A stretch of DNA of 64,000 nt from a virus (lineage: Duplodnaviria; Caudoviricetes), in the IMG/VR virus record IMGVR_UViG_3300044627_003892; one strand, 5' to 3'. The position numbers were made by a program, and so were the translations under genes. This document shows, piece after piece, positions 717 to 27,354 of the stretch. Within the stretch, counting starts at the first letter, position 1. Each line of letters begins with the position of its first letter. The notes beneath the pieces are model-generated. The model had not been told where the DNA came from. It saw only the letters and a program-made list of their open reading frames with translations, and made no database searches.

Positions 717-3700
717 TTATATAAAGTTAAAATTGTTTGCTGTTGTATAAACAAGTCCTAATGTGAATGTTCCACCCGCAGCTCCTGCAGCTCCTGAGGT
801 ACCTGATGAACCAGTAATACCCGATGAACCTGAAGTACCTGATGAACCTGATGTTCCAGATGTACCGTTAACAATAATAGTAACTGCACATACGTCATTT
901 ACTGTAAGTGTTGTATCACCACCATTTGTATATAATGCACCTGTAAACAAATAATCACTACCACTTACACTTACATTGTTGAAGTAGTAAATATCAATTT
1001 TATTTGAACCATTTAAATTAAAAATTAAATATACAATCCCTTGTGTTCCAACTAAGTTTAAAAAATAATCACTTAAATCTGCTGAGTCAGCAGTTACTAC
1101 GTCAAATTTCAAATCATACACCGCTACACCCGCTCCTTGATAAGTAAATTGACCTGAAGCAGGTGCACCTCCTGTCCCACCACCGTATTGGTATTGAAGA
1201 CCACCTTTATTACCTTGACTACCTGATGTGCCTGATGAACCACTTGTTCCTCTTGAACCCGTACTTCCGCTAGACCCCGAACTACCTGAAGAACCCGAAC
1301 TTCCACTAGAACCACTTGTTCCCGATGAACCTGAAGAACCTGAACTACCAGATGAACCTGATGTGCCAGAACTACCTGATGAACCACTTGAACCTGATGT
1401 TCCTGAGCTTCCGCTTGTCCCTGAAGAACCAAAACCTGATGAACCAGATGTTCCACTAATACCATCTAATCCGCTTGTTCCTGATGAACCTGAACCTGAG
1501 CTACCTGATGAACCAGCACTTCCTGAAGAACCGCTAGTTCCACTACTTCCTGTAATACCTGAAGAACCTGAGCTTCCACTTGAACCTGATGAGCCAGAAG
1601 AACCTGATGTTCCTGAACTACCGCTAGTACCCGAAGAACCTGTATTACCGCTTGAACCTGAACTTCCTGAAGAACCGCTAGTTCCTGAGCTACCACTTGT
1701 ACCTGTACTACCCGATGAACCCGAACTTCCTGAAGAACCACTTGTTCCTGATGAACCTGATGTACCAGAACTTCCAGTATTACCTGACGAGCCTGAACTA
1801 CCCGCACTTCCACTTGAACCTGATGTTCCTGAGCTTCCACTTGTTCCTGATGAACCTGTATTACCAGAACTACCACTACTTCCTGAAGAACCACCTGACC
1901 CTGATGTACCCGAAGAACCAGATGTTCCTGAGCTACCACTTGAACCTGAAGTTCCACTCGTTCCTCTTGACCCTGTACTACCAGATGAACCAGAACTACC
2001 ACTAGAACCTGATGACCCACTACTACCTGAAGTTCCTGAAGAACCGCTAGTTCCACTTGACCCAGCACTTCCACTAGAACCTGAACTTCCGCTTGACCCC
2101 GAACTACCTGAAGAGCCTGATGTACCACTTGAACCAGAAGTTCCTGATGAACCACTATTACCCGAAGAACCTGAGCTTCCACTTGAGCCAGAAGACCCTG
2201 ATGTTCCTGATGAACCGCTAGTACCAGATGAACCTGTGTTTCCACTTGACCCTGAACTACCAGCACTTCCTGAAGAACCACTTGTCCCTACTGAACCTGA
2301 AGTACCAGCACTACCGCTAGAACCAGAACTACCTGTACTACCACTTGAGCCTGATGTTCCAGAACTACCACTTGTTCCTGTACTACCCGATGAACCGCTA
2401 GTTCCTGAAGTACCACTTGTTCCTCTTGAGCCTGTACTTCCGCTAGAACCCGAAGACCCACTTGAGCCTGAACTTCCAGCACTTCCTGAAGAACCACTTG
2501 TACCTACCGAACCTGAAGTACCAGCACTACCGCTAGAACCACTACTTCCACTTGAACCAGATGAACCTGACGTTCCACTACTACCAGATGCCCCTGAACT
2601 TCCACTAGACCCTGACGAGCCACTTGAACCAGAAGAACCGCTAGAACCTGAAGTCCCTGATGAACCAGAGCTACCTGATGTTCCGCTACTTCCATTAGCA
2701 CCTGATGTACCAGCAGAGCCAGAACTACCACTACTTCCCGAAGAACCTGAACTTCCACTTGTACCAGATGTTCCCGAACTTCCGTTAACTCCTGATGTTC
2801 CTGAACTACCACTTGAACCTGATGAACCAGCACTTCCTGATGAACCACTTGACCCAGATGTTCCACTGCTTCCATTAGCACCTGATGTACCAGCACTTCC
2901 TGAAGAACCAGTTGAACCTGAACTTCCACTAGAACCACTACTACCTGATGTTCCACTACTTCCATTGGCTCCAGATGTTCCTGATGAACCTGAACTACCA
3001 CTTGAACCCGAACTACCACTTGAGCCAGAAGAACCTGATGTACCAGAGCTACCATTAGAACCAGAAGTTCCTGAAGACCCACTTGAACCTGAGCTACCTG
3101 ATGTTCCCGATGTTCCTGAGGTTCCTGAAGAACCACTAGTACCTCTTGAACCCGTACTACCCGATGACCCTGAACTACCACTACTTCCACTAGAACCTGA
3201 TGTTCCAACAGAACCAGAACTACCGCTACTTCCACTTGAACCAGATGAACCACTTGAGCCAGATGTTCCTGAACTACCATTAGCACCTGATGTACCAGAA
3301 CTTCCAGCACTACCACTAGAACCTGAAGAACCACTAGACCCTGAACTTCCTGATGTTCCACTTGAACCAGAAGAACCTGTACTTCCTGAACTACCACTTG
3401 AACCAGATGTCCCAGTTGAACCTGAACTTCCTGATGAACCAGCACTTCCGCTAGACCCCGAACTACCTGATGTTCCACTGCTTCCATTGGCCCCCGATGT
3501 ACCACTACTTCCTGAGCTTCCAGCACTACCGCTAGAACCTGACGAACCACTTGTACCTGAAGAACCGTTAGTTCCAGATGTTCCCGACGAACCTGAAGAA
3601 CCACTAGAACCTGAAGAACCTGATGTACCCGAAGTACCTGATGTTCCTCTTGAACCAGTACTTCCTGAAGAACCTGAACTACCACTACTTCCTGAACTTC

Positions 3701-6700
3701 CACTCGTACCAGCACTTCCTGATGAACCAGAACTTCCTGATGAACCGCTAGAACCTGATGTTCCAACGGAACCAGAACTACCACTTGAACCAGATGTTCC
3801 TGAACTTCCATTAGCACCTGATGTACCCGCAGAGCCAGATGACCCTGAACTACCACTACTTCCTGAAGAACCACTTGTACCTGAACTTCCGTTAGCTCCC
3901 GATGTACCTGATGAACCACTACTTCCTGAGCTTCCGGATGACCCCGAACTACCTGATGTACCAACAGAGCCAGAACTTCCTGAACTTCCAGTACTACCGC
4001 TAGACCCTGACGAACCACTTGTTCCTGACGAACCTGATGTTCCGCTACTACCCGATGAACCTGAACTACCAGCACTTCCTGAAGAGCCACTTGTCCCTAC
4101 TGAACCTGAAGTACCAGCACTACCACTAGAACCACTACTACCTGATGTACCACTAGTACCCGATGTTCCTCTTGAACCTGTAGAACCTGAACTTCCGGAT
4201 GAACCACTTGAACCAGAACTTCCTGAAGAACCAGATGTACCTGATGTTCCACTATTTCCTGAACTACCACTAGTACCGTTTGTACCATCAACACCACTTA
4301 ATCCTGATGAACCCGAAGTACCAACAGAACCTGAACTCCCACTACTACCCGATGAACCAGAACTTCCTGATGTACCATTTGAACCAGATGTTCCTGAACT
4401 ACCACTAGTTCCTGAAGTACCGCTAGTTCCTCTTGAACCTGTACTACCAGATGACCCTGAACTTCCACTAGAACCCGATGAACCGCTAGACCCTGAAGAA
4501 CCACTAGTTCCACTTGAACCTGAGCTTCCTGAAGTACCTGTACTACCCGATGAACCAGAACTTCCTGAACTACCACTAGAACCAGTACTTCCCGAAGTTC
4601 CTGATGTCCCGCTTGTACCTACAGAACCTGACGTTCCTGAGCTTCCAGTACTACCGCTAGAACCTGATGAACCTGATGTTCCACTACTACCTGATGTTCC
4701 AGTACTTCCACTTGAACCTGAACTACCACTTGAGCCAGAAGAACCAGCACTACCTGATGTTCCTGTACTTCCTGACGAACCACTTGAGCCAGTACTTCCT
4801 GACGAACCAGATGTTCCAACACTTCCGCTTGAGCCTGATGTTCCACTAGTACCTACACTACCTGAAGTACCACTTGTACCCGATGTACCTACAGAACCCG
4901 AAGAACCTGAACTTCCACTAGTCCCCGAAGTACCTACCGAACCACTAGTCCCCGATGTTCCTGATGAACCAGATGTTCCTGACGTTCCGCTAGTTCCTGA
5001 CGAACCAGAAGTTCCACTTGTTCCTCTAGAACCTGTTGAACCAGAACTTCCGCTTGAGCCTGAGCTTCCTGAAGAACCCGTACTACCACTTGAGCCAGAT
5101 GAACCTGAAGTACCAGATGAACCACTTGTTCCACTACTTCCTGAACTACCCGTTGAACCTGATGACCCACTACTACCTGAAGTTCCTGAACTTCCGCTAG
5201 TTCCCGATGTACCTGATGAACCAGAACTACCGCTAGACCCTGAACTTCCACTACTTCCTGATGTACCTGCAGAACCAGATGACCCTGAACTACCACTACT
5301 TCCACTAGAACCTGATGTTCCACTTGTACCAGTACTCCCTGAAGAACCTGATGAGCCACTACTTCCACTCGAACCTGAAGTACCAGTTGAACCCGAACTT
5401 CCACTTGTACCAGTACTCCCTGATGACCCCGCACTACCACTTGAGCCAGAGCTTCCAGATGTTCCACTAGTACCTACTGAACCTGAAGTTCCTGAAGAAC
5501 CAGACGAACCTACTGAACCTGACGTTCCTGAAGTACCAACACTTCCAGATGAACCTGATGTTCCGCTAGTTCCTCTAGAACCTGTTGAACCAGAACTTCC
5601 TGATGAACCTGAAGTTCCACTACTCCCTGATGAACCCGCACTACCACTTGAGCCAGAGCTTCCAGATGTTCCACTACTACCTGAAGTACCAACAGAACCG
5701 CTAGACCCTGACGAGCCAGCACTACCTGATGAACCTGAAGTTCCGCTTGTACCTACTGAACCCGAACTACCTGAAGAACCTGAACTTCCACTTGAGCCAG
5801 CAGAACCTGATGTTCCTGAAGAACCATTAACCCCTGATGTACCAGCACTTCCCGCAGAACCTGATGAACCAGTACTTCCTGAGCTTCCAGCACTACCGCT
5901 AGAACCTGACGAACCACTTGTTCCTGATGAACCGCTAGTTCCAACACTACCACTTGAACCTGATGACCCACTTGAACCAGAAGTTCCAGATGTTCCTACA
6001 CTTCCACTTGTACCTGCAGAACCTGAACTTCCACTACTTCCTGATGTTCCCGAACTACCTGAAGAACCGGATGTACCTACACTACCACTAGTTCCTGAAG
6101 TACCGCTAGTTCCTCTTGAACCTGTACTACCTGAAGAGCCAGATGACCCAGAACTTCCTGAAGAACCGCTAGAACCTGAACTACCGCTAGTTCCGCTTGA
6201 CCCTGATGAACCGCTAGTACCTGATGAACCGCTAGTACCTGATGTACCAACACTACCACTTGAACCAGAAGAACCTGAACTACCACTAGTCCCTGATGTA
6301 CCAACACTTCCTGAACTTCCAGCACTACCGCTAGAGCCTGAAGAACCGGATGTGCCTACACTTCCCGATGAACCACTACTTCCGCTTGACCCAGATGTAC
6401 CAACAGAACCAGAACTACCACTTGTTCCAGCACTACCACTAGAACCGCTACTACCTGATGTTCCTGAAGAACCGCTAGTTCCTGTTGAACCTGAACTTCC
6501 AGATGACCCAGTACTTCCCGAAGAGCCGCTAGTACCAGATGAACCCGTACTACCACTTGAGCCTGAACTTCCTGATGTACCACTTGTACCTACTGAACCT
6601 GAGGTTCCACTTGTTCCTACACTTCCAGATGAACCTGAACTTCCACTTGAACCAGACGAACCTGAATTACCACTAGTTCCGCTTGACCCTGTACTTCCGC

Positions 6701-9700
6701 TAGAACCTGAACTTCCACTTGAACCAGAAGAACCGCTAGTACCTACGCTACCTGATGACCCTGATGTTCCCGAACTACCACTAGAACCTGAAGTTCCAGA
6801 ACTTCCTGAACTACCAGTCGAGCCAGAACTTCCTGATGAACCACTACTACCGCTAGTACCTGAACTACCCGTACTTCCAGATGAACCTGAAGTTCCCGAT
6901 GTACCTACACTACCACTTGAACCTGATGTTCCAGTACTTCCTGACGTACCACTTGTCCCAACACTTCCTGATGTACCACTAGAACCTGATGTTCCTGAAG
7001 AACCGCTAGTTCCTCTTGAACCTGTTGACCCTGAACTTCCTGATGAACCAGAACTTCCACTTGAACCGGATGAGCCACTTGTACCTGATGAACCGCTAGT
7101 TCCAACACTTCCACTTGAACCAGAACTTCCTGAACTTCCACTTGTACCAGATGTACCTGACGAACCTGATGTCCCAACAGAACCAGAACTTCCTGAGCTT
7201 CCAGCACTTCCGCTAGAACCTGACGAACCACTTGAACCTGATGTACCTGAACTTCCGTTAGCACCTGATGTACCCGACGAACCACTTGAACCAGATGACC
7301 CCGTACTTCCACTACTTCCTGAAGAACCAGAAGTTCCAGAACTTCCGCTTGTTCCTACACTACCACTAGACCCTGAAGAACCACTTGAACCAGATGTTCC
7401 ACTAGTTCCAGAAGTACCAACACTACCACTTGAGCCAGATGTTCCGCTAGTTCCTACACTACCTGAAGAACCTGATGTTCCACTAGTACCTACACTACCC
7501 GATGAACCTGATGTTCCAACACTACCACTTGAACCTGAACTACCTGAAGAACCAGAACTACCTGATGTTCCTGAGGTTCCAGTACTTCCACTAGAACCTG
7601 CACTTCCTGAAGAACCACTTGAACCTGATGTACCAGAAGTTCCAACGCTACCACTACTACCTGAACTTCCACTTGAGCCGGTAATACCTGAAGTTCCACT
7701 TGAACCTGAACTACCTGATGAACCGCTAGTCCCTGTTGAACCAGAGGTTCCACTAGTTCCTGTACTTCCGCTAGAGCCTGAACTACCGCTAGTACCTACA
7801 CTACCCGACGTACCAGAGCTTCCTGAAGACCCTGTACTTCCACTTGTACCTGATGTTCCAGTTGAACCACTTGTTCCTGAAGTCCCCGTTGAACCTGATG
7901 TACCACTAGTTCCTGTACTTCCACTTGAACCGCTAGTTCCTGAAGTACCCGATGTTCCTCTTGAACCTGTAGAACCTGAACTTCCGGATGAACCACTTGA
8001 ACCAGAACTTCCTGAAGAACCAGATGTTCCTACACTTCCACTTGTACCAGCTGAACCTGAACTACCAGAACTTCCTGAAGACCCACTAGAACCTGATGTT
8101 CCTGAAGAACCACTTGTACCTACTGAACCTGAACTTCCTGAAGAGCCACTTGTACCTACTGAACCTGAACTTCCAGCACTACCACTAGACCCTGAACTTC
8201 CACTGCTTCCATTGGCTCCCGATGTACCTGATGAACCAGAAGTTCCGCTAGAACCTGATGAACCAGAAGTTCCCGAAGTGCCTGATGTTCCACTTGTACC
8301 ACGACTTCCTGTAGAACCAGAACTTCCTGATGAACCAGTACTACCACTACTTCCTGACGTACCACTAGTACCACTTGAGCCAGATGTTCCTGAAGAACCT
8401 GAGCTTCCAGCACTACCACTACTTCCACTTGTTCCCGTAGAACCTGAACTACCAGCACTACCGCTAGACCCTGAACTTCCACTACTTCCTGATGTACCAG
8501 CCGAACCACTTGTTCCTGTAGACCCAGACGAACCACTTGAACCCGAACTTCCTGAAGAACCACTTGAACCTGTTGAGCCAGAAGAACCTGAGGTTCCTGA
8601 ACTACCACTTGAGCCACTAGTTCCAGTACTTCCCGAAGAACCTGAAGTACCTACACTTCCTGACGAGCCAGATGTTCCTGAACTTCCAGTACTACCACTT
8701 GAACCCGAAGTACCACTTGTACCTGAGCTTCCAGCGCTTCCGCTAGAACCTGACGAACCACTAGTTCCTGAAGTACCCACACTTCCCGAACTTCCACTTG
8801 AACCTGAAGACCCAGTTGAACCCGATGTTCCACTTGTACCTGAACTTCCACTATTTCCTGACGAACCGCTAGAACCTGACGTTCCACTAGTACCCGAAGT
8901 TCCTGATGTACCAACACTACCAGATGAACCTGAACTACCTGATGTTCCTGAGGTTCCATTAGTGCCGCTTGAACCAGATGTTCCTACACTTCCTGAGCTT
9001 CCACTAGTACCTGAAGTACCTACACTTCCTGAGGAACCAGATGTTCCGCTTGTACCTACAGAACCACTTGTTCCTGAAGAACCTGACGTACCAGTAGAAC
9101 CACTTGTTCCTGAAGAACCTGACGTACCAGTAGAACCACTTGAACCTGTGCTACCGCTAGAACCTGACGTTCCTGAGCTTCCAGCGCTACCGCTAGAACC
9201 TGATGAACCACTTGTTCCAGATGTTCCGCTAGTTCCTACTGAACCAGACGTTCCACTAGTTCCAACAGAACCAGAACTTCCTGATGTTCCGCTAGTTCCT
9301 CTTGAACCCGTACTACCTGAAGAACCAGAACTTCCCGATGAACCGCTAGTACCTGAACTACCTGTTGAACCTGAACTTCCACTTGAGCCAGATGAACCTG
9401 AAGTACCACTTGTTCCTACACTTCCACTTGTACCGGCAGAACCAGAACTTCCCGATGAACCACTTGTTCCTGATGTGCCAGAAGTTCCAACACTTCCACT
9501 AGAACCAGATGTTCCGCTACTTCCTGAACTACCTGAAGACCCACTTGAACCTGAAGTTCCGCTAGTACCTGTAGTTCCTGATGAACCACTAGTACCTGAA
9601 GAACCTGATGTCCCACTTGTTCCCGCAGTTCCTGAAGAACCTGAAGAACCTGAAGTTCCACTTGAACCGCTAGTTCCCGATGTTCCTGTTGTACCTGAAG

Positions 9701-14362: not shown

Positions 14363-14363
14363 A

Positions 14364-16432: not shown

Positions 16433-17300
16433 ATTTAATATCCTCTAACGCCTTGTAAAAACTTTTATTTATTGTAAAATAATCCTCAGGTAGACCTGGA
16501 GGCCCATTTGTTTCATGCCACCATGTTTCAAAATAGAACATTTTAAACATATCAATATAATTTTGATACATTAATGATAAAATCTGTTCTTCAAACCATA
16601 GCCCTTTGGTGTCCTCAACTATTTCTTTAAGGTTCTGTTCAAACACCTCAACTAATTTTATAAAATTATTTTTTTCACCCCCAAAAATACCCCCAATAAT
16701 ATGTAATGAATTATCATATATTTTATAAAACTTCGGTGGGACAGTACCACTCCAATAATTCCTAACATTATCTTTTCCAATAATTAATATTTTATCATCA
16801 CTTTTATTTATTAATTTATTTAAAAAATCATTATCAAAAAAATGACTGTTGTAGTACCCTTGGTATTCGTCATTATGTTCCAAATATTTGTCGGGTAGTA
16901 ATCCACAATGTGATAATCCAGCATCTATCCAATAATAATAATCATATGACATATCCTCATTTAAGAACCAAAAAAACTTGTTATACTGTATTTCAAAACA
17001 TCTATCACCAGTTTTAACTGACTCAACATTTTTAAAATTTTTAATTAAATTAAAATGATTACTATCCTCTAAATTAAATCCAACAATCTGTAATTGATTT
17101 TCAGAAATATTATTTTCAGAATAAAAAAAATGTTTTAGTTGTTCAATTTCTTCATTACTTGTATAACAAACAAAATTAGCGTTTGTCATTCTTAACAATG
17201 ATATTAGACTCCAACGATAGTGATTATCTCTATTTTGTCTTCCACCATAATCAGTTCCATTTAAATTAGAGTATATTGCGGTTATAAATTTAACTTTCAT
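16425..17300 (-). CDS. HtrL/YibB-like putative glycosyltransferase (291 aa)
   Basis: FITAIY, YYWIDAGLSH, IIGGIFGG, EEQILSL; the same motif set as the N-terminal domain of the neighbouring 556-aa protein. Confidence 0.65.
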   Translation of the reverse strand: MKVKFITAIYSNLNGTDYGGRQNRDNHYRWSLISLLRMTNANFVCYTSNEEIEQLKHFFYSENNISENQLQIVGFNLEDSNHFNLIKNFKNVESVKTGDRCFEIQYNKFFWFLNEDMSYDYYYWIDAGLSHCGLLPDKYLEHNDEYQGYYNSHFFDNDFLNKLINKSDDKILIIGKDNVRNYWSGTVPPKFYKIYDNSLHIIGGIFGGEKNNFIKLVEVFEQNLKEIVEDTKGLWFEEQILSLMYQNYIDMFKMFYFETWWHETNGPPGLPEDYFTINKSFYKALEDIKYE

Positions 17301-18009
17301 ATTTTAATATTTGATTGTTATTATAATCCATATATTCTGATGGTATTTTTACAGGTGAGTATCCATTCCAATTATATGTTTGAGTATAAAAATTGTTATA
17401 AACATCGTGTGACACATCTGAATAAGAACTTCGTTGAGGAGCGATTGGTAAATTTGGACAATAACTTTGGAAATTAGGGTATATTACTTTAGCAAGGAAC
17501 CCATCTATCGGATAAAAATAATTTCCGTCATGGAACTTTTCCTCCGAAATTTTAAACATCTCATCATATATTTTTTCATCGTATATTAGAATGTTTGTCG
17601 CAAAAGTTTCGGTTAAATAATCATGTTTTTTTTCAGGTAACTTTGTTAAGTCCAATAATAAATCACAATCATCACTAATGTTAACATGTCTATTTAATGT
17701 TGGTGATAGATTTAATACATAATAATTTAAATCGTTCATTTTTAATTCAATCTCTTCCAATAGTTTTTTTGAATACGGCATAAAGACACAATCATCTTCA
17801 ATAACCATAACTTTATGGTAACCTCTTTCTTTAGCAATTTTGATGATTTCTAAATGAGATAAAGTACATCCCATATATCCATTCATATCAATAGCTTTAA
17901 AAATTTCAAAGTCCCAAGACATGTATTTCATTTCTTGGGTTATTTCATTTAGTCTCTCAGGTCGTTTTTCTAAATTGATTACAAATTTTGGTATGTCTAT
18001 AAATCTCAT
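17290..18009 (-). CDS. glycosyltransferase family 25-like (239 aa)
   Basis: FVINLEKRPERL, GCTLSHL and VMVIEDDC are the characteristic GT25 (Lex2B/LgtB-like) motifs. Confidence 0.85.
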   Translation of the reverse strand: MRFIDIPKFVINLEKRPERLNEITQEMKYMSWDFEIFKAIDMNGYMGCTLSHLEIIKIAKERGYHKVMVIEDDCVFMPYSKKLLEEIELKMNDLNYYVLNLSPTLNRHVNISDDCDLLLDLTKLPEKKHDYLTETFATNILIYDEKIYDEMFKISEEKFHDGNYFYPIDGFLAKVIYPNFQSYCPNLPIAPQRSSYSDVSHDVYNNFYTQTYNWNGYSPVKIPSEYMDYNNNQILKYES

Positions 18010-19250
18010 AAGTTTCCTGTTATTCTATCACACCACCCTTTAGATTCCGAGTGAGGCCAAACCACCCAATATTTAGGTTTTGAATCAGTTAAGAACTCTC
18101 TCCAAACTTTACAATAACCATCAGGGTCTCTTAACATTCTATCAACTTCACCTTTATCAGCATCTTGTCTGTAAATGGTTTCATCTAATTCATTATGGAA
18201 AGCAACTACCCAAAAGTCATAATCCTTTTCAGGTACTTGAGTAAACCCAATATCAATACAATGTTTGAATACCGATGTGAATGATTTTAACCATTCCTCT
18301 TCTGAATTGAAGTTGTTTGGATTTGGTGGATAACCTTTATCTAATGTATATTGTTGAACAGCTCTCTTTGAAAATAGAAGTCCTGAATATTTTTCATAGT
18401 CTCTTAAAGTTCTAACTTTACCAAAACCATACTTTCCGTGTTTCATATCTTCCTCACCATCCATACCAAATAGAGAACGATTTTTCTTATGAGCGAAATT
18501 ATTCTTATCCACCCATTCTTTATCGTCATCCCATTGTTTGGTTCTACCCTTACGAGTATATTCATGCCAAATCAAAACTTTATGTGGGTGGAATAAATCA
18601 TATCCATGAGTGTAAGCTCTTGCGGCAATTGAAATCTCTTCACCATGAAAATAAAACTCAGGGTCATGTTGAACTTCTTTAGCAAACTTACCAAGAGTAA
18701 AACAGAAGTGAGCAGAGTAAAATCTTGCGGTAACAGGTTCAGTTAAATTTTGCCAACCCGGTATTGTCTCAGGTAAAAAGAAAACCGCACCTTCAGGAAT
18801 AAATCTATCAAACGCCATTCTCCACGGTTCGTTAACACGTAAGTTTGGGTCATTGTCAGGGTCAAACGATGAAACATAACCTGTCAATAAAGGTTTCTTA
18901 TATCCTTTTTTTTGAAGTTGTTTAATCATCTTAATCATCTCATCATCCCAATTTTGACCGAACCTCATGTGTGAGTCAATTTGGAGGGTGTAATTTTCTT
19001 TATCATACACTTGTTGTATTTGATTTCTTGCCCAACATGCTCCTCTAGATTCATAATAAGGAATATCAATTATTCTAAATCTTTCATCATCTCTATATTC
19101 ATCTAAATTATCAAAATTATCATCGCGATGATACTGACGAGCGATACCGAAAACTAAGTTTTCAGGTCGTTTAGCATTTTCTAATGCTGACTTTATAGTC
19201 GGGATTAACTGTGGGTCTCTATAAGACGCAACTTGTATAAAAATTTTCAT
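18006..19250 (-). CDS. GT60/'GlcNAc' family polypeptide N-acetylhexosaminyltransferase-like protein (414 aa)
   Basis: IFIQVASYRDP, SRGACWAR, LQIDSHMRF (DxH), FHGEEISIAARAYTHGYDL. These match the Skp1 GlcNAc-transferase (GT60) family, which is related to GT27 ppGalNAc-transferases. There is an extra C-terminal domain of about 90 aa. Confidence 0.85.
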   Translation of the reverse strand: MKIFIQVASYRDPQLIPTIKSALENAKRPENLVFGIARQYHRDDNFDNLDEYRDDERFRIIDIPYYESRGACWARNQIQQVYDKENYTLQIDSHMRFGQNWDDEMIKMIKQLQKKGYKKPLLTGYVSSFDPDNDPNLRVNEPWRMAFDRFIPEGAVFFLPETIPGWQNLTEPVTARFYSAHFCFTLGKFAKEVQHDPEFYFHGEEISIAARAYTHGYDLFHPHKVLIWHEYTRKGRTKQWDDDKEWVDKNNFAHKKNRSLFGMDGEEDMKHGKYGFGKVRTLRDYEKYSGLLFSKRAVQQYTLDKGYPPNPNNFNSEEEWLKSFTSVFKHCIDIGFTQVPEKDYDFWVVAFHNELDETIYRQDADKGEVDRMLRDPDGYCKVWREFLTDSKPKYWVVWPHSESKGWCDRITGNL

Positions 19251-19319: not shown

Positions 19320-20183
19320 TTAAAATCCGCTTGTTACCAAATTATAAAAAATTAAACCTGTTACGGTGGTTGTTTTTGCAATTGTTGGAGTTGAGTAACT
19401 AAAAGTCATCACGTCACCGCCACTTAGTTCTCCAAATTGTATTCGTAACGGATAATATGTACCAGCAGTTAATGCTATAGAACCTGAACGTTCTTGTGTT
19501 CCATGTAATCCACCGTTATTAACTGTCGAGTTTGTTGTTGTAAATCCTGAAATACTATTACTACCAACCCAAACATAGGAAGCATCATCAGATGAAGTAA
19601 AGAATGTGTAAGTTTCTGTAGTAGTTGGTTTGAAATAACCTAACCATTGACAACTGAAATTCTCACCGTCACTGGTTGGTGGTTCTGTTATCTCGGTGGT
19701 CTGTACTGAAGTCGCAGGATTTCCACCTACTGATGCGGGAGTTGCGGTTGCAAAGAAATTAACATTATCATTAAAGTACCCACTATAAGTTGTTTTAAAT
19801 ACTCCAGCAGTATAACTTAAATCCCAAGATGTCCAATATCCCGCCGAGTTTAACCATGTCTTAGCCGCTGAAGCACTTGCAAATGTTTGTGGTGTTCCGG
19901 TAAAACTTGATACATACTGAGACAAACTAATAAAGTTATTATCTGTCTTACTTGGTGTTCTCCAAAAACCAATATTAGCAGGTACTCCAAGTTTATTTGG
20001 TTGTGTTCCTGATGGTACGGTATGAGCAATCACATAACCTAAATCTTCATCAGGACCACTCCACCATCTTAGTCCTGTAGATGTAAATCCACTTGTTGGG
20101 TATCCAATAGCAATACTTCCAACTTGTTCTGTTCCAGTAATTGTTGAACCTGTATTATATGCAAAAGGTCTTGATGTTGCCAT
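19320..20183 (-). CDS. PA14/GLEYA carbohydrate-binding domain virion protein (287 aa)
   Basis: NFSCQWLGYFKPTTTETYTFFTSSDDASYVWVG...NNGGLHG...LTAGTYYPLRIQFGE..GG is a typical PA14 signature with the DD pair. Confidence 0.85.
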   Translation of the reverse strand: MATSRPFAYNTGSTITGTEQVGSIAIGYPTSGFTSTGLRWWSGPDEDLGYVIAHTVPSGTQPNKLGVPANIGFWRTPSKTDNNFISLSQYVSSFTGTPQTFASASAAKTWLNSAGYWTSWDLSYTAGVFKTTYSGYFNDNVNFFATATPASVGGNPATSVQTTEITEPPTSDGENFSCQWLGYFKPTTTETYTFFTSSDDASYVWVGSNSISGFTTTNSTVNNGGLHGTQERSGSIALTAGTYYPLRIQFGELSGGDVMTFSYSTPTIAKTTTVTGLIFYNLVTSGF

Positions 20184-20330: not shown

Positions 20331-21935
20331 TTAACTAAATGTCACAGTTATTGTTTGTGTAGGTTGTCCACATGAACTACCGTTTAATCCACCCCAATTT
20401 GAATTTTTAATCATAGGTCTCACTGTGTATGTTCCTGGACATTGACACAACCCTCCCGATGTTAAATAAATTGAATTAGCATCAACAGTTCCTGAAACAC
20501 AACCGTGTGCAACTCTCCAAGTATTAGCTCCAATTGTTACTGTAAAGTTTGTACCTGTAGTAGCTGTTCTCAAAGCATTTGCAATATCTTGAACTTTAAC
20601 ATCTGTCACTATTACTGAAGTTCCGAGGTTATTTGATATTGACATATTAGTATAAGTACCCGTTAATTGACTCCTGAAAGTTGTCCAAGCGTTTTCTATT
20701 GTGGTTCCTGGTGCGGCATTATTTGTAAATGTTTCAGAGAATGTAACACCTGTAGCAGGTATTGGACTAACACTTGGTGTTGGGGTATTAGTAGGAGTTA
20801 TTGTCGGTGTGATTGTATTAGTCGGTGTTTGTGTTGGTGTTAATGTATTAGTAGGTGTAATTGTTGGAGTTATTGAAGGTGTTGGGGTGTTGGTTTGAGT
20901 ATTAGTTGGAGTAATACTTGGTGTTACAGTTGGTGTAACTGTTGTTGTCGGAGTAGGTGATGGTGAAATAAATCTTGACGAAAATGAATTGTAATTTTTT
21001 AATACTTCAGTAGAACTTAATACTCTATTGTAAGTCATAGCAACTGAAACTCTACCATTTAATAAATTATTACCAGCGCCAAACGCTCCTATCCTTGTTG
21101 AACCATTACCCCCAATAGGTGTCTTTTGAGCTGTGTATGTATTATCCTGAACACCATTAACATATAATACAAATCCATTTGTGGTATCAAAAGTTACACA
21201 CGCATTATACCACACCCCATTACTAAAGTTAGTGACCGATGGGAAAACTGTATAAACACCCCAATTTGAGTGGCCACAATATAATTTATTGGTGCTAGCA
21301 AAGAACATAAAGTGTCCACCAGTATCACTACTTAATAAATTATTATCTGAAGTACTATTTAAATAAAACCAAATATTCTTTGTATACGATGATAGTCCAA
21401 GAGGTGTTCCTCCAACGTTGACGTATTGAGTGTTACCATTAAATGTAAGGTATCCGTTGTTACTTGAATTGAATGTTGGAGTATTAATTAGTGTTCCGTT
21501 GTTACCACTAAAACTTAAATCATCCCATCGTGAACCACTTCTTGGGTATGATGAAACATAACCAGCATCAAGCAATAATGTTAATCCGTCAGTAACAATA
21601 TCAGGATAATCAAGGTTAACACAAATAAGTCCTGTTTGTCCTGTGTACCATCCTAAGGCTTCGTTAGCCGTACTAAATGTTTGTCCCGCAAATCCTTGTG
21701 TAAAACCAATAAGTTCTGAGTCGTTTTGAGCAACCACTATGGATGGTCCAGCAACTGCCTTGTTTCCATACATGGTATAACCACCTGATGGTGGTATAAT
21801 AGAATTCCAAAATCCTGTAACACTTGTTGGCCCGTATTCCGCACCTTCATTAATACCCAAAACCCAATCCTTAACTTTAATCGTATTAGGATGAAAGGAC
21901 GTTGAGTATTTTATTTTATTTGGTGGTATTGGCAT
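20331..21935 (-). CDS. LamG/concanavalin-A-like lectin domain virion protein with Pro/Thr linker (534 aa)
   Basis: GLTLLLDAG..SYP.SGS.W.DLS..GNNGTL, FNG..QYV, WYNACVTFD...LYVNG, RIGA...LNGRVS..MTYNRVLS; start moved to ATG 21935, which overlaps the upstream TAA (TAATG). Confidence 0.85.
   Translation of the reverse strand: MPIPPNKIKYSTSFHPNTIKVKDWVLGINEGAEYGPTSVTGFWNSIIPPSGGYTMYGNKAVAGPSIVVAQNDSELIGFTQGFAGQTFSTANEALGWYTGQTGLICVNLDYPDIVTDGLTLLLDAGYVSSYPRSGSRWDDLSFSGNNGTLINTPTFNSSNNGYLTFNGNTQYVNVGGTPLGLSSYTKNIWFYLNSTSDNNLLSSDTGGHFMFFASTNKLYCGHSNWGVYTVFPSVTNFSNGVWYNACVTFDTTNGFVLYVNGVQDNTYTAQKTPIGGNGSTRIGAFGAGNNLLNGRVSVAMTYNRVLSSTEVLKNYNSFSSRFISPSPTPTTTVTPTVTPSITPTNTQTNTPTPSITPTITPTNTLTPTQTPTNTITPTITPTNTPTPSVSPIPATGVTFSETFTNNAAPGTTIENAWTTFRSQLTGTYTNMSISNNLGTSVIVTDVKVQDIANALRTATTGTNFTVTIGANTWRVAHGCVSGTVDANSIYLTSGGLCQCPGTYTVRPMIKNSNWGGLNGSSCGQPTQTITVTFS
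20761..20966 (-). repeat. coding Pro/Thr (mucin-like) linker
   Basis: [41 protein letters not shown]...; boundaries approximate. Confidence 0.9.
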
Positions 21936-24169
21936 TATCTTGCAACTTCTGTTATTCTCAACCACATTGAAGTAGATGAATTTACTATTGTGATACTATC
22001 ATCCGCAGAACTTCTACGACATGCAACTACTATCGATTTTGCGGTTGTATTAGAGTTAGTGTATCTACCCGTTAATGGAAATAAAACACCTGTACGAAAT
22101 CCATTAACCGTGCTTTGTACTGAATAGGTTATTTCACCACCATCAACCTTTATTCTAGATATGTATGAATCATTACCTGTACCAGAAGTAAAATCAAAAG
22201 ATGCTAAGTGATAATGTATTACTAAATAACTTGTAGAACTTAATGGTGTATAACTATAAGTAACAAAATCAGTATCCGAAGTACTGGTAGCAATAGTTGT
22301 AGTACTAACAGTTACCTCAGTATTACTCAAAATAATATCGTTAATTACCTGACCGGCTCTCCACGCATTAGCCTTTATAAATCCTGTAAATACCACATTA
22401 CCTGTGGTATCTATAGCCATTTTTACCGCACCTCCTGCTTCATTTAAATTATTTGTGATACGAACTAACTGTCCACTTAGAACATCAAATGACCCATTAA
22501 AACTATCAATACCAAAGTTTGAATTATTAGCATAATAAAACAAAACACCCGGAGTATCTGTACTATTATTATCAAGAAGAACATCACCAGTAGCTGACCC
22601 CGCCTTTGTAAATGTTCCGTTACCAAAAGATGTTACACCTGTAGTACTTATATTACCATTAACACTTGTATTACCTGTAACTGATAATGTAGTACCATCA
22701 AAAGTCATTCTAGCCTGAGCAACCGCAGCATTAGATGTCCCATCAGATGTTAATACTCTATTACTACCCGGACTTGTGATTGTGGTAAATCCTGTACCTG
22801 ATGTTCCGGCAGAACCGGAACTACCCGATGAACCTGATGTACCAGAACTACCTGAAGTTCCTGAAGAACCACTTGAACCTGATGTTCCGCTAGTTCCTGA
22901 AGAGCCACTTGAACCTGATGTTCCGCTAGTTCCTGAAGAGCCAGTACTTCCACTTGACCCTGAAGAACCACTACTACCACTTGAACCATATGTACCAGAA
23001 CTACCTGAAGTTCCACTACTACCACTTGTTCCTGACGAACCTGTAGAACCCGAACTCCCCGAACTTCCTGATGACCCAGACGTTCCTGATGAACCAAAAG
23101 ATAAACCCGAACTTCCTGATGACCCCGCACTTCCCGAAGCACCTGTAGAACCACTACCACCACCTCCACCACCAACAGGCATAACGGTAACAATCAAAGA
23201 AGGAATTGCTGGATGTAAAGCAGTTGATGCCTCTGCCAATAATGAAATATTGACATTGTTAGTCGCCCACATTAATTCAACATATGTTCCGGCAGTTACA
23301 GTAATTAAAAAATCCCAAGCAGCAACTAAATATGGGTTGTTTGTAGGAACTGAAACTTTTGTATTGGTATTAGGAACATTAACACCATTTTGTCTTAACC
23401 AAATATCAACATCCACACCCGCACCACCACCTTTATTATTGTTTAATTGAACCGAGAATTGAATATCATAAGTTCCAGCACTAGCAAAAGTGATTTGTGA
23501 ACCTGAAACAATCGTAATACCACTAGCCTCAGCAGTACTATTCAATCTCATAGGATATGCGGTATTGATTAGTGTCGCCGTTTGTCCTGATGTATCATAG
23601 AACGAACCATATAAATTAACACCTGAAGTTAAAGCTCCCGTTGAAAACTTTCTCCATGCCGCAGTACTATATGTTGCACCACTAACATCTTCAATAGTGT
23701 TAGCAGTCCAAGAATTAATAAACGACTGACCCGCAGCAGTTTTATTATTTATTGTTGTTCCAAAATCAGAAACCTGAGCACATCCCGTACTAGCAGTCGC
23801 AGCATTAAATAAAGTCTCGTAATCATTAATATGATATTGATAAACTTGGTCAACCTCATAAACATAAGCCAACATACCAAGTCGTCTTCTACCTGATGAA
23901 ATATTATCTGAAGCTAATGTAATTACATCAGGAGACCAAGCGGCACCCGTTCCCTTTGTAAACTCAATAGGAATAGTATTACCTGAATATTCAATACTTC
24001 CCGTTGTTCCTGTTGGTATTGTATAATAAAGGTCAGATAAACTGAAAACCTCCATATAACCACCCGTATTGTTAACACTGAAAGTAGTACCATAAGTATT
24101 GTTTCTTGGGACACTTTGTGTTCCATTTAGTTGGATAGACGATATTGGATTTTTATATGGGAAACTCAT
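21935..24169 (-). CDS. fibre protein paralogous to the giant protein: shared N-terminal domain, C1q/BclA-like domain, short Gly-X-Y tract, shaft and tip domain (744 aa)
   Basis: N-terminal PY.NPIS, SDN.SSGRRRLGM and YQY.I..Y shared with 717..13124; YGSFYD...ITFASAGTYDIQFSVQL...YVELMW jelly-roll pattern; GSS/GTS tract near 22795..23150. Confidence 0.8.
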   Translation of the reverse strand: MSFPYKNPISSIQLNGTQSVPRNNTYGTTFSVNNTGGYMEVFSLSDLYYTIPTGTTGSIEYSGNTIPIEFTKGTGAAWSPDVITLASDNISSGRRRLGMLAYVYEVDQVYQYHINDYETLFNAATASTGCAQVSDFGTTINNKTAAGQSFINSWTANTIEDVSGATYSTAAWRKFSTGALTSGVNLYGSFYDTSGQTATLINTAYPMRLNSTAEASGITIVSGSQITFASAGTYDIQFSVQLNNNKGGGAGVDVDIWLRQNGVNVPNTNTKVSVPTNNPYLVAAWDFLITVTAGTYVELMWATNNVNISLLAEASTALHPAIPSLIVTVMPVGGGGGGSGSTGASGSAGSSGSSGLSFGSSGTSGSSGSSGSSGSTGSSGTSGSSGTSGSSGTYGSSGSSGSSGSSGSTGSSGTSGTSGSSGSSGTSGTSGSSGSSGTSGSSGTSGSSGSSGSAGTSGTGFTTITSPGSNRVLTSDGTSNAAVAQARMTFDGTTLSVTGNTSVNGNISTTGVTSFGNGTFTKAGSATGDVLLDNNSTDTPGVLFYYANNSNFGIDSFNGSFDVLSGQLVRITNNLNEAGGAVKMAIDTTGNVVFTGFIKANAWRAGQVINDIILSNTEVTVSTTTIATSTSDTDFVTYSYTPLSSTSYLVIHYHLASFDFTSGTGNDSYISRIKVDGGEITYSVQSTVNGFRTGVLFPLTGRYTNSNTTAKSIVVACRRSSADDSITIVNSSTSMWLRITEVAR

Positions 24170-24178: not shown

Positions 24179-25183
24179 TTATATATCAACCTTACTTCCT
24201 CTAAAATAAAGGTCGTAAGTATTATCCAATTCAAATGTATTTGATGGGTATGTTGTGTAAACTTTATATTCCGCCTTAACAATAGTTCCACCAGTATAAT
24301 TAAATGTGTTTGAATATATTGTTGGTTCCATTTTCACACTTGTAAAAACATTTGGATTTACAATTCCTAAATCAATCTCAATTTGATATTTGTAATTAGT
24401 ATATACCACAGGTATTATCCATGTGTACCACGCCTTAGAACCTACAGTATTTTCAGGTACTTTTGTTGTTAAAAAGTTGTAAGCAATTATTGGGTTACCA
24501 TATGAATCCAAACCACTTGTTGTAATCGGTACTGTCTGTTTTATAATTGACGGGAATGAACCTGATGTCCATCCTGAATAATTAACATATCTATTCATGT
24601 CTAAATCAAACGTAGATGCTGATGTACTTGGTTGAGAAGTATTTGTAAAACCATAAAAACTTGAACCGAGTGAACTCATATAAGAACCAATACTTGATGA
24701 CCCTGAATATGGTTCAATGAATAAGTAAGCATATAAAAAAGGTTCAGGTGTTTGAGTTGGTGTAGGTGTTGTCGTAACCGTAGGAGTTACTGTCTTAGTC
24801 GGAGTAATACTTGGTGTAACTGTATTTGTTGGTGTAATTGACGGAGTAATACTTGGTGTTGGAGTAAATGATGGAGTAACACTTAGTGTTGGAGTATTCG
24901 ATGGTGTTAAAGATAATGTGGGAGTATTTGTCGGTGTAATACTTGGTGTTGGAGTTGGTGTTAAACACATGTAATTTTGTGTAAATACACATCCCGTTGA
25001 ATCAACAATCTTAATTAATAATTGAGGAGCTGTTGTATAACCACTTGGCACAGGAAAACTAACTGATGGTGGAATGTAATCCGTGAAAGTTCCTATAAAT
25101 TGACAATTAAACTGGAAAATATCACAAACATATATTTGATACGGTGGAATACCTGAAACACTATCAATAGTAATTAAACTCAT
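24179..25183 (-). CDS. virion protein with Pro/Thr linker and C-terminal domain paralogous to 13154..14362 (334 aa)
   Basis: [27 protein letters not shown] and YFRG align with YAYVFAEP, MNKYASYSGFTGG, YTIWIP and YFKG. Confidence 0.75.
24741..24962 (-). repeat. coding Pro/Thr (mucin-like) linker
   Basis: [45 protein letters not shown]...; boundaries approximate. Confidence 0.9.
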
Positions 25184-25188
25184 CTAAA

Positions 25189-25195: not shown

Positions 25196-25209
25196 CTTCA
25201 AACAGAACT

Positions 25210-27354
25210 TTAAGTTCTACATGAAATATTATAAACTACTCTAACACTAATTGTTAATAATTCATCTTTATATACTTCAACCCCACCAACAACTTGAGAC
25301 TCAATAACAATAGTATTAGTGTCAGGATTAATTTCAGTACTCTGTAAATTAGGTATTAAAGATAGTAATGACTCAATTGCCGTTATAAAATTATCAGTCG
25401 ATGGTACTGAATTTAAATTAGGTGATACATAAAATACTGATGAATATGTAGTGCCAGTTATTTCAATATCACAATTAAATTGAGCGTAATTTAATTTACA
25501 ATCATCATGTCCACTAACTAAATTAGCATACCCTGTAAATAACATATTTCTAAAATCATATGTTTTTGTAGGAATATATGTTGGTGTGGATACTTTAACA
25601 GGTTGTACTTTAGAATAACTAATTAAAGGATTACAAGTTATTGTTTTACTTTTAGTTGTTACACATCCTGTAGCAGCACTTACTGTTAATGTATATGTTC
25701 CAGCAGTCAATCCTGTTAGATAAACACCTGTTTGCCCATTTACATTACTACTCCAAGTTAAATCAACAGGAAAATCAGTGTAATTAATCATTGCGCTTAT
25801 TGTACCCCCACTACCATTACCACAACTTGTACCATACAAAAGAACATTAATAGGGCTTGTGTCTATAATATTAACTGAATAACTTTGACTACAATAATTT
25901 GAGTCAGTAACTATTAAGTCATAAACTCCTGCGGTTAGATTAGAAAATGTATATGCCGTTGATATAGTTTGAATTGATGTAACACCATTAGATAAACTAT
26001 ATGTATAAGTTAATCCTGTTACAACAGGTGTAACTTCTAAGTAGATACTACCACCATTAAAACTACAGTTTGTAGTAGTTGCAGTTATTGAAGTTGCAAA
26101 TGATAAACTTGTATTAATTGAAAAGTTTTTAGTATATGTGCAAGCAGATGTCGCATCATTTATCGTTACTGTATAGTTACCTGAAGATAAATCGCCAAAA
26201 GATTGATTTGGAATATTAACAGTGTTAATTAATGTATAACCACTATTGTTTGTAAAATTATAAGTATAAGGTGTTGCCCCACCTTGTAATTGAATATTAT
26301 AAACCCCTGAATTATTGTTACAACTTGAGTCAGTTATTGATTCCGAAACAACAAAGAAAGTATTTGGTGTTTGTAATACAACATTAAATGTTGCAGTACA
26401 TAAAGCAACGTCAGTAACTTCTAACGTATAATTACCAGCCGATAAACCACTAAAAGTTAAAAATTGGTCATAACTAACTAACGAGTCACCATTACTTAAT
26501 AAATAAAAGTAAGGTCCTGTACCACCTGAGATGTAATAAGTAATTGAACCTGTATTACCTGTACATGTCGGTGAAACTAATGTATATGTTATTAAACCTA
26601 TCGGGTCGGCATTTAATACTGTAGTTGTTTTTGTTATTGAACATCCTTGTGAGTCAGTAACGGTACAAAAATAGTTACCACTAGTTAAACCTGTAACAGA
26701 TGATGTTGTTGGAGAACCACTAATATTTGATGACCATGTATAAGTATATGGTGGTATTCCTGTAACACCTGTAACAAATATTTTACCATTTGTAAGTGAA
26801 CATGCTGGATTATTTACAACATAAAATCCAAAATCCATAGAACTTGTATTGTAAAGTACAACATTTTCAGACTCTCCATAACATCCACCATAATTAGTAC
26901 AAGTCGCATAATAAACACCTTCAGGTAAATTAACAAATGTATATTGATTAGCACTTGTAACCGTTGCGGTACTATATTGTACATTATCTTTAAATAATGT
27001 TATTTCATTAGTACCATAATTGGTGTATGTATTAACACTTAATGACCCATTTGATAATCCACACGAAGTATTTTGAACATCTTGTATAAATAAGGTGCTT
27101 GCGGATGTAATATAAACTTGTATAACTCCTGAAGATTGATTAACAGGAACTGATGAGTCGTTCACATAAAATTGGTAAGTTCCAGCACTTAATCCTGTAA
27201 TCGAATAATTTCCTGTTGTTGATGCAGATGCGTATAATGGTGTTAACCAATTAACAATATAAGGTGTATTACCACTTGTAAAATCAATACTAAAACTACC
27301 TAAGTTACTATTAGTACAATCTCCAGTTACCGATATGTTATAAAAAAATGACAT
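25210..27354 (-). CDS. SprB-repeat-like virion protein (714 aa)
   Basis: Tandem C...NG.I....GG/GI.PYTY.W...GL.AG.Y...VTD..GC units resembling the SprB repeats of Bacteroidota adhesins. Confidence 0.75.
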   Translation of the reverse strand: MSFFYNISVTGDCTNSNLGSFSIDFTSGNTPYIVNWLTPLYASASTTGNYSITGLSAGTYQFYVNDSSVPVNQSSGVIQVYITSASTLFIQDVQNTSCGLSNGSLSVNTYTNYGTNEITLFKDNVQYSTATVTSANQYTFVNLPEGVYYATCTNYGGCYGESENVVLYNTSSMDFGFYVVNNPACSLTNGKIFVTGVTGIPPYTYTWSSNISGSPTTSSVTGLTSGNYFCTVTDSQGCSITKTTTVLNADPIGLITYTLVSPTCTGNTGSITYYISGGTGPYFYLLSNGDSLVSYDQFLTFSGLSAGNYTLEVTDVALCTATFNVVLQTPNTFFVVSESITDSSCNNNSGVYNIQLQGGATPYTYNFTNNSGYTLINTVNIPNQSFGDLSSGNYTVTINDATSACTYTKNFSINTSLSFATSITATTTNCSFNGGSIYLEVTPVVTGLTYTYSLSNGVTSIQTISTAYTFSNLTAGVYDLIVTDSNYCSQSYSVNIIDTSPINVLLYGTSCGNGSGGTISAMINYTDFPVDLTWSSNVNGQTGVYLTGLTAGTYTLTVSAATGCVTTKSKTITCNPLISYSKVQPVKVSTPTYIPTKTYDFRNMLFTGYANLVSGHDDCKLNYAQFNCDIEITGTTYSSVFYVSPNLNSVPSTDNFITAIESLLSLIPNLQSTEINPDTNTIVIESQVVGGVEVYKDELLTISVRVVYNISCRT

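Follow-up and report, generated by a model that had tools for sequence, protein, structure and literature searches.

The 64,000-nucleotide phage sequence analysed here (IMG/VR virus record IMGVR_UViG_3300044627_003892; the window, in what follows, is the whole of this 64-kb stretch) has all of its long open reading frames (ORFs) on the minus strand, and four of them form a glycosyltransferase cassette set among genes for fibres and other appendage proteins, at the coordinates collected in Table 1. The four genes overlap by 8, 11 and 4 nt in coordinate order and hold five transferase-type domains: a GT60 domain, a GT25 domain, an HtrL-like domain, and a second HtrL-like domain fused to a GT2-like one. 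The overlaps suggest that the cassette is an operon inside the fibre/baseplate block. The initial annotation of this stretch had placed four overlapping glycosyltransferase genes with this set of domains at 14762..19250, inside the fibre module and apart from DNA metabolism. The coordinates and the overlaps were confirmed, and Pfam, profile and model comparisons bore out all five domains at the family or fold level; the baseplate and DNA-metabolism genes begin only at 41046 and 43410.

Because the window encodes baseplate wedge proteins together with replication and recombination proteins (ribonucleotide reductase, a DnaB-like helicase, an exonuclease, a UvsX-like recombinase and the single-stranded-DNA-binding protein SSB), its source is assigned to the tailed phages with a contractile-tail-type baseplate. 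The closest baseplate matches in isolated phages are only 24-27% identical, so that there is no near isolate. Its close relatives come from IMG/VR, in contigs that reach 322 kb and are rated by CheckV as 98-100% complete at 294-322 kb. The source is a jumbo phage, probably lytic and of about 290 kb. Judging from the genes, we consider it probable that the cassette is a phage-encoded, cytoplasmic system for stepwise O-glycosylation of the phage's own appendage proteins, and the acceptors with the best support are most likely the Pro/Thr linkers of three proteins of 411, 544 and 334 aa.

Table 1. Features of the window, in order of position, with the evidence for each assignment
Feature	Length (aa)	Position	Strand	Evidence or remark
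Giant collagen-like fibre protein	4135	717..13124	(-)	Gly-X-Y repeat count
Pro/Thr-linker protein	411 as listed	13154..14389	(-)	5 of the 8 TPTP[S/T] pattern matches
122-aa protein	122	14364..14732	(-)	Paralogue of the N-terminal domain of the adjoining 411-aa gene
Two-domain glycosyltransferase (HtrL fusion)	556	14762..16432	(-)	PF09612 HtrL_YibB, E 2.1e-13, residues 3-254
HtrL-like putative glycosyltransferase	291	16425..17300	(-)	Profile-profile match only
GT25-family glycosyltransferase	239	17290..18009	(-)	PF01755, E 1.1e-13, 52 bits against a cut-off of 24
GT60-family glycosyltransferase	414	18006..19250	(-)	PF11397, E 9.9e-68, 229.6 bits against a cut-off of 21
PA14/GLEYA carbohydrate-binding-type protein	287	19320..20183	(-)	PF10528, E 1e-18; PF07691, E 4.4e-15
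Laminin-G/ConA-like domain, then Pro/Thr linker of ~75 aa	544	20331..21965	(-)	PF13385, E 5.2e-17; TPTP[S/T] pattern match
Second fibre	744	21935..24169	(-)	Pfam Collagen, E 9.8e-13; PHROG tail-fibre families
Pro/Thr-linker protein	334	24179..25183	(-)	2 TPTP[S/T] pattern matches; C-domain paralogous to that of the 411-aa protein
Ig-like/SprB-repeat protein	714	25210..27354	(-)	phrog_2973, E 2.7e-14; SprB repeat, E 6.5e-8
Baseplate wedge genes		41046-43347	(-)	Best matches in isolated phages 24-27% identical
DNA-metabolism genes		from 43410	(-)	Nucleotide-metabolism genes at 43-52 kb

The lead enzyme of the cassette is the 414-aa GT60 protein, whose match to PF11397 falls in two stretches, the best one covering residues 54-292, and which carries an extra beta-rich C-terminal domain at about residues 318-414. 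The GT60 family comprises polypeptide alpha-N-acetylglucosamine (GlcNAc) transferases that start mucin-type glycans in Dictyostelium and Trypanosoma cruzi, and the characterised enzymes act on Thr/Ser-rich mucin domains (PMC8724618; PMC3769586); it is kin of GT27 without the ricin domain, and is known from protists and prokaryotes only (PMC8724618; PMC7185993; PMC3769586). A D-x-H motif instead of DxD is typical of both GT27 and GT60 (PMC7185993). In the phage enzyme this motif is D92-S93-H94, with D92 and H94 invariant and S93 nearly so among 41 homologues of 36-55% identity. Since sequence and profile searches of the GT60 protein and the HtrL fusion against PDB chains gave nothing meaningful, folds had to be compared, and the AlphaFold2 (AF2) model of the GT60 protein (predicted local distance difference test score, pLDDT, 96.4) was aligned with 48,161 PDB representatives without a pre-filter. 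The nearest folds were the mucin-type N-acetylgalactosaminyltransferases (GalNAc-transferases) mouse GalNAc-T1 (Z 21.0, 280 residues, 3.8 Å) and T. gondii GalNAc-T3 (Z 19.7), followed by chondroitin polymerase (Z 16.9) and then other GT2-type enzymes, which puts the mucin-type enzymes 3-4 Z units above other GT-A enzymes. GT60 is the one GT-A family in which all characterised members start O-glycans on protein Ser, Thr or hydroxyproline, and the 414-aa protein is probably an initiating polypeptide alpha-N-acetylhexosamine (HexNAc) transferase, with GlcNAc as its predicted sugar. Among the relatives of this enzyme are some giants of 1600-2460 aa (P0123, P0124 and P0126), in which GT60-like stretches number up to four, and one distant GT60 representative was traced to short contigs only.

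The gene at the other end of the cassette encodes the 556-aa HtrL fusion, whose AF2 model (pLDDT 85.4) contains two GT-A domains. Residues 1-268 are nearest to GT6 enzymes (ABO transferases and BoGT6a; VIA-align Z about 13, 197 residues, 3.5 Å), so that a family-model match and a GT-A-like fold both place the protein in HtrL_YibB. Residues 285-546 are nearest to B4GALNT1, POMGNT1 and GnT-I (VIA-align Z 13-14), from which a GT2/GT12/GT13-like GT-A fold is predicted, and an E-D-D triplet in this second domain is invariant in 26 homologues. A whole-chain fold search with Foldseek returned Mimivirus R699 and the human enzymes LH3 and COLGALT1 among the top tandem GT-A matches, and these reflect the tandem GT-A architecture only (TM-score 0.3, root-mean-square deviation 17-18 Å). 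The likeness to the collagen glycosyltransferases LH3 and COLGALT1 was considered as evidence for a collagen acceptor and rejected, because domain-wise alignment shows generic GT-A matches.

The 291-aa protein had no match in a Pfam scan, and its family profile aligns with the HtrL domain profile of the 556-aa protein with an hhalign probability of 94.5% (E 7.4e-8, 222 columns). The family-profile searches that the initial annotation had proposed as a check thus gave matches for GT60 and GT25, both above cut-off, and for HtrL_YibB, the 291-aa protein being recovered by profile-profile comparison only. The GT25 and 291-aa genes are part of a variable island; the GT25 gene is missing from the closest collagen-bearing relatives, which have three other genes there instead. 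None of the cassette proteins has a hydrophobic (transmembrane) segment. Next to the HtrL fusion gene lies the gene of the 122-aa protein, which had no Pfam or PHROG match and is a conserved, probably structural partner of the cassette. A scan of the cassette for sigma-70 promoters and terminators gave nothing better than shuffled sequence.

All three proteins in which the initial annotation had seen Pro/Thr linkers proved to have them: a TPTP[S/T] DNA pattern occurs 8 times in the window against 0.08 expected, and every match falls in the 411-, 544- or 334-aa gene. In the 411-aa protein, an N-domain resembling the 122-aa protein is joined through a Pro/Thr/Ser linker of ~45 aa to a C-domain that the 334-aa protein also has. 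Its listed start is a TTG, and the gene probably begins at an ATG nine codons in (~14362), giving 402 aa; this start is favoured because the resulting N-terminus, MEWFIKK, parallels the MEFFINK of the 122-aa paralogue, and it leaves a 1-nt overlap with the end of the 122-aa gene. Homologues of the 411-aa gene follow the cassette in most related loci, often with the Pro/Thr/Ser tract kept, and on these grounds the 411-aa protein is the best-supported candidate acceptor. Protist GT60 acceptors and these linkers are alike in being Thr-rich, Pro-containing, mucin-like tracts. The protist enzymes (Dictyostelium, Trypanosoma cruzi) likewise share with the window enzyme PF11397, the DxH motif and a GT-A fold nearest to GT27, whereas the window enzyme is phage-encoded and soluble in the cytoplasm rather than Golgi-bound, has the extra C-terminal domain of ~95 aa, and is paired with a two-domain transferase and a swappable island.

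At least 503 IMG/VR stretches encode a GT60 relative, and the phage counts given here refer to the best 80 of these loci, with GT60 proteins 76-98% identical to that of the window. In most of them GT60 is followed by the HtrL fusion (56-97% identity), the 122-aa gene (41-100%) and a 411-like gene (27-93%), and the HtrL fusion lies downstream of GT60 in 76. Between GT60 and the HtrL fusion, the stretch ranges from 1.6 to 9.8 kb and from 2 to 13 genes, with 78 protein clusters in 29 layouts overall. A Pfam scan of 45 island families found transferases of the GT10, GT25, GT2, GT32, GT7, PLOD, TcdA/B and GT-D types, beside FkbM and other methyltransferases, a UDP-GlcNAc 2-epimerase, a HAD hydrolase and a nucleotidyltransferase. 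GT60 proteins of 97% and of 79% identity are both found with the window's layout (GT25 plus HtrL-like), and both of these backgrounds also occur with the layout of the closest fibre-bearing relatives; because identical layouts are found in near and distant GT60 backgrounds, whole islands are concluded to be exchanged. Conserved ends with a swappable middle are, by analogy, the pattern of loci for exposed, antigenically variable glycans. The GT25 and HtrL-like genes, whose products the initial annotation had taken as extenders of the glycan, are thus swappable island genes with no fixed tie to the fibre. Same-strand genes with Pro/Thr/Ser linkers accompany GT60 in 63 of the 80 loci, and in 39 of the 46 with full flanks.

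A comparison that does not depend on phage synteny comes from bacteria. GT60 homologues are present in at least 562 bacterial species genomes, and among the best 80 bacterial loci 20 encode, within 8 kb of GT60 and often directly adjacent to it, a (Thr-Pro)n protein, defined by a tract of at least 85% Pro/Thr/Ser. These 20 span Alpha-, Beta- and Gammaproteobacteria, Verrucomicrobiota, Acidobacteriota, Actinomycetota and Planctomycetota, and none of the 80 has a collagen-like gene. The (TP)4 DNA pattern is found in 3 places in a 6.0-Mb Ralstonia genome (one of them 1.1 kb from GT60), in 1 place, adjoining GT60, in a 4.1-Mb alphaproteobacterial metagenome-assembled genome (MAG), in 2 places (one adjacent to GT60) in a 3.2-Mb Sphingomonas MAG, and in about 8 places, two of them flanking GT60, in a 4.5-Mb Acidimicrobiaceae MAG; by our own arithmetic, such adjacency would arise by chance with a probability of roughly 0.001-0.01 per genome. 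Thus the companion conserved beside GT60 is the Thr-Pro tract.

In two of these bacteria, Ralstonia sp. 25C (L184:10270-13131) and an Achromobacter MAG (L196:13052-15535), the tract forms the C-terminal tail of a VgrG spike (Phage_GPD, gp5 OB and gp5 C domains; tail ~150 aa in Ralstonia) encoded a few kb from GT60. The context is that of type VI secretion, with TssF and ImpA (TssA) in Ralstonia and ClpV in a related Cupriavidus locus. A protein near GT60 in Paraherbaspirillum soli (L150:11903-14389) looks alike by eye only, without a Pfam scan. The arrangement suggests that the VgrG tails are glycosylated, and a literature search found no paper on glycosylated VgrG with Pro/Thr tails. We tentatively propose, as a possibility to which we do not commit ourselves, that GT60 and Thr-Pro tracts form an ancient prokaryotic partnership for cytoplasmic mucin-type O-glycosylation of contractile-injection-machine proteins, in which the island would act as a virion 'serotype locus'.

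The most conspicuous Ser/Thr-rich protein beside the cassette is the giant fibre, in which 1805 Ser and 604 Thr add up to 2409 Ser/Thr residues. The initial annotation had recognised this richness; beyond mere Ser/Thr content, the protein is collagen-like in its long, unbroken Gly-X-Y periodicity. Of its 1262 Gly-X-Y triplets, 1144 stand in one unbroken run from residue 310 to 3741, with X being Ser in 60% or Thr in 37%, and Y being Ser in 81% and Ser/Thr in 89%. Pro is wholly missing from the repeats, which do not have the Pro or charged pairs that stabilise collagens. The chain comprises an N-domain of ~205 aa, the repeats, a globular domain of ~113 aa, a short second repeat and a C-terminal tail, and would measure about 1.1 micrometres if a collagen-type helix formed, as calculated from the standard rise per residue. 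The DNA repeats of the gene are old and degenerate (61-81% matches), so it is not a simple assembly stutter; its length of 12.4 kb is supported by the assembly and by comparably long genes in relatives. Two relatives with a 98-100% identical N-domain (L082 and L086) have fibres of 2435 aa or at least 3538 aa, and the differences in length reflect either real polymorphism or repeat collapse in short-read assemblies. A 3784-aa frame on the opposite strand, at 1228-12582 (+), is a by-product of the biased repeat codons and no gene. The second Gly-Ser/Thr-Ser fibre of the initial annotation was borne out as well: the 744-aa protein shares its N-domain with the giant fibre, after which come about 45 Gly-Ser/Thr-Ser triplets, and its C-terminal part is globular.

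The cassette might then exist mainly to coat this micron-scale fibre, perhaps stabilising a Pro-free triple helix in the manner of BclA, as the initial annotation had favoured. About 2300 Ser/Thr residues in a strict Gly-X-Y frame lie ~1.6 kb downstream of the cassette, with the second fibre upstream. There is also a precedent in Clostridioides difficile SgtA, which is encoded beside bclA3 and modifies Thr (and Ser) in collagen-like repeats with O-GlcNAc (PMC7157674); like Bacillus BclA, this system resembles the window in having a collagen-like protein gene beside a GT-A transferase, and it offers a functional model for a fibre coat. A search with the fibre N-domain found 28 loci, with the cassette just upstream in 13 and GT60 10 kb downstream in 1 more; four of these loci (L105, L106, L108 and L109) have few or no Gly-X-Y triplets, and in GT60 loci L028 and L051 the N-domain heads non-collagen fibres. 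However, SgtA is not a GT60 enzyme, and in BclA3 Thr occupies the third place of Gly-Pro-Thr repeats, whereas the window's repeats have Ser/Thr at X, mostly Ser at Y and no Pro, while GT60 homologues accompany Thr-Pro tracts. Nor are transferase and collagen gene kept together as in the BclA/SgtA type: on contigs that are incomplete, Ser/Thr collagen repeats lie within 10 kb of GT60 in just 10 of the 80 phage loci, all with GT60 identities of at least 97%, and in 0 of the 80 bacterial ones. In the closest fibre-bearing relatives, moreover, the GT25 and HtrL-like genes are replaced.

Further evidence against a fibre-directed purpose comes from a sister clade of ten loci (L095-L104), whose N-domain is 64% identical and whose long Gly-Ser/Thr fibres reach more than 3337 aa, and in which no GT60 was found within 10 kb upstream, nor anywhere on the four contigs searched whole (50-93 kb, the longest with ~81 kb upstream). 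All ten contigs end inside the repeat, and the absence holds for the contigs, not for whole genomes. In L103, the only sister locus scanned, no glycosyltransferase was found among the upstream genes, and two contigs that start inside such a repeat (L123 and L128) have no GT60 and no DNA overlap joining them to L095-L104. The portion of the module that the glycosyltransferase cassette takes up in the window holds, at L103:4239-7886 and ~2 kb upstream of the giant fibre, a gene whose 1215-aa product weakly matches a papain-like peptidase at the C-terminus. Taking both sides together, we think it unlikely that coating the giant fibre is the main purpose of the cassette; the fibre may still be one acceptor. 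Of the co-occurrence of cassette and repeat genes that the initial annotation had proposed to examine, the part concerning Pro/Thr linkers was found in most loci, and the part concerning Ser/Thr collagen repeats in the closest relatives only.

The nearest counterpart of the proposed O-glycosylation of appendage proteins is the cultured jumbo phage XacN1, for which at least two virion glycoproteins have been reported and phage transferases suggested as their makers (PMC5852040). XacN1 has a GT60 (ORF334, 47% identity), an HtrL-like protein (ORF332, a homologue of the 291-aa protein) and an HtrL fusion (ORF330, 43% over the full length) in the same order as the window, the full series being ORF334, a carbamoyltransferase, ORF332, ORF331 and ORF330. 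It differs from the window in the carbamoyltransferase of its island, in having no collagen-like Ser/Thr fibre in the 25 kb examined, and in its gammaproteobacterial host (Xanthomonas), unlike the Bacteroidota hinted at for the window phage. The enzyme family, the acceptors and the island were left unidentified in that paper (PMC5852040). Near the XacN1 cassette, ORF325 (L081:22186-25344) encodes a giant protein with two terminal Pro/Thr linkers and Cys- and Asp-rich repeats between them, which may be one of the virion glycoproteins reported. The initial annotation had known of no such system in Bacteroidota phages. This stands as far as GT60 is concerned, since our literature search found no paper naming it in a phage, but virion glycosylation by the same enzyme had already been proposed in 2018 in the XacN1 paper.

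A protein-directed cassette could also glycosylate host proteins, or phage proteins outside the virion, as a takeover tool or effector. GT60 enzymes are protein-directed, and one island family in the relatives matches the catalytic glycosyltransferase domain of TcdA/TcdB, both of which would suit such a role. We nonetheless regard it as very improbable, because a multi-step, methylated glycan and island turnover at the strain level fit an exposed surface glycan better, the cassette stands among fibre genes with Pro/Thr-linker neighbours, and the glycoproteins of XacN1 were found in the virion. Modification of DNA bases in the style of the T4 glucosyltransferases, classically the task of phage glycosyltransferases, is extremely improbable. 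The 556-aa protein does show a weak PHROG match (E 1e-4) to a family named after glucosyl-hydroxymethylcytosine glucosyltransferase, but the families and folds of the cassette enzymes differ from known DNA glucosyltransferases, the cassette lies apart from the nucleotide-metabolism genes, and no gene of the thymidylate-synthase/hydroxymethylase family was found in a 98%-complete cassette-bearing relative or in the two closest large relatives (82% complete).

Several observations weigh against O-glycosylation of the phage's own appendage proteins. Among PDB chains and in the literature we found no solved or characterised prokaryotic GT60 member, and the protein specificity of the phage enzyme is extrapolated from the protist ones. 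Four of the 80 phage loci have no HtrL fusion within 10 kb of GT60, and the XacN1 cassette adjoins replication genes as well as a giant Pro/Thr-bearing protein. Pro/Thr linkers also occur elsewhere in four large related genomes, in several clusters, and within phages the adjacency of cassette and linkers could be shared ancestry; because linkers form clusters away from the cassette too, their enrichment at the phage loci was not used as independent support. Finally, GT25 and HtrL_YibB are named after lipopolysaccharide loci, and for the synthesis of core oligosaccharide soluble or peripheral transferases need no flippase gene of their own. The enzymes might accordingly act on host envelope glycoconjugates, such as the lipopolysaccharide core at the cytoplasmic face, and so block superinfection or change the cell surface. 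This appears quite improbable to us. GT60 is not a lipid-directed family, the solved folds nearest to the lead enzyme are protein-directed, the cassette stands among late appendage genes of a probably lytic phage, and the pairing of bacterial GT60 with (Thr-Pro)n proteins would be left unexplained. No island variant has a membrane or lipid-carrier gene: Pfam found no flippase, polymerase, ligase, phosphoglycosyltransferase or polysaccharide-transport family in the 45 island representatives, 302 of 303 island proteins in the relatives have no transmembrane segment (the remaining 1 is borderline), and neither cassette nor islands have the make-up of Wzx/Wzy- or ABC-type lipid-carrier polysaccharide loci. 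Soluble proteins and this island content would fit direct, sugar-by-sugar addition in the cytoplasm, the site of virion assembly.

Two further systems bear comparison with such a virion-directed cassette. Mycobacteriophages (Che8 and kin) are described as O-glycosylating structural proteins with their own glycosyltransferases (Freeman et al. 2023, as cited in PMC13445384). As there, the glycosyltransferase genes of the window lie within the structural block, 22 kb from the baseplate wedge genes. Going by that citation, the Che8 case is one of experimentally demonstrated glycosylation, of capsid and tail-tube acceptors in a phage of Actinobacteria, whereas the system of the window is predicted from genes, in a jumbo myovirus-like phage with proposed linker and fibre acceptors and a hypervariable island. 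Fibril glycosylation of the Mimivirus type is similar in combining virus-encoded, organelle-independent machinery with long surface fibres, but differs in the domain of life of the host and in the enzymes.

In the mechanism that we favour for appendage O-glycosylation, the soluble GT60 enzyme would transfer a first alpha-HexNAc, likeliest GlcNAc from uridine diphosphate (UDP)-GlcNAc, to Thr/Ser of newly made structural proteins, before or during assembly, as its family, motif and fold indicate. The two-domain transferase, GT6-like in its HtrL part and GT2-like in the other, would attach the next sugars, and the island genes between them would extend or decorate the glycan, here through GT25 and the HtrL-like protein and in relatives through fucosyltransferase-like, GT2, GT32 and other transferases, methyltransferases, an epimerase and a nucleotidyltransferase. 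Variation of the island would therefore result in a different glycan for each phage lineage. The benefit may be a variable hydrophilic coat that shields or stiffens the linkers and alters the stickiness of the particle.

Other genes of the appendage block were assigned as follows. Immediately upstream of GT60 is the gene for the PA14/GLEYA (lectin-type) protein, which could be a carbohydrate-binding appendage. The 714-aa Ig-like (immunoglobulin-like)/SprB-repeat protein, at the edge of the block, is assigned as a Hoc-like decoration or stalk, and its SprB repeat counts as a clue to the host. The best GT60 matches in the bacterial genome collection, with 66-74% identity (contigs L129-L134 and L151), are binned with Saprospiraceae, Bacteroidia and Chitinophagia MAGs and, in one case (L132), with Melainabacteria; one 230-kb contig among them is probably a mis-binned jumbo phage. 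The Bacteroidota host assumed in the initial annotation is thus hinted at by MAG-binned matches and the SprB repeat, and falls short of proof.

The cassette DNA was found, exact, in at least 24 lake-water metagenome runs, and contigs from four such runs span it with zero differences. Summed contig depth over part of GT60 (18390-18915) is 10-30x that of the flanking genes in four lake metagenomes, which suggests many co-occurring phage lineages with a near-identical, highly conserved GT60. The assembly graph breaks up at the same positions in those metagenomes.

Phage protein glycosylation is known from very few experimental cases, and in virions it is already established experimentally for mycobacteriophages. 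New here are the enzyme family, which is a different one, the hypervariable island combined with a conserved core of two enzymes, and the unexpected parallel with type VI secretion. More than 7,400 near relatives of this GT60 are present in public protein sets. If our interpretation is correct, a mucin-type initiating family whose characterised members come only from protists would be a core gene of very abundant lake-water jumbo phages, and the prokaryotic GT60 enzymes as well as the orphan HtrL family would acquire a testable function, open to direct experiments in cultured XacN1 and at the type VI secretion loci of bacteria. The glycan would be diversified through cassette exchange, as bacterial surface antigens are, which would give a new view of phage surfaces and of adsorption, stickiness and recognition in natural waters.

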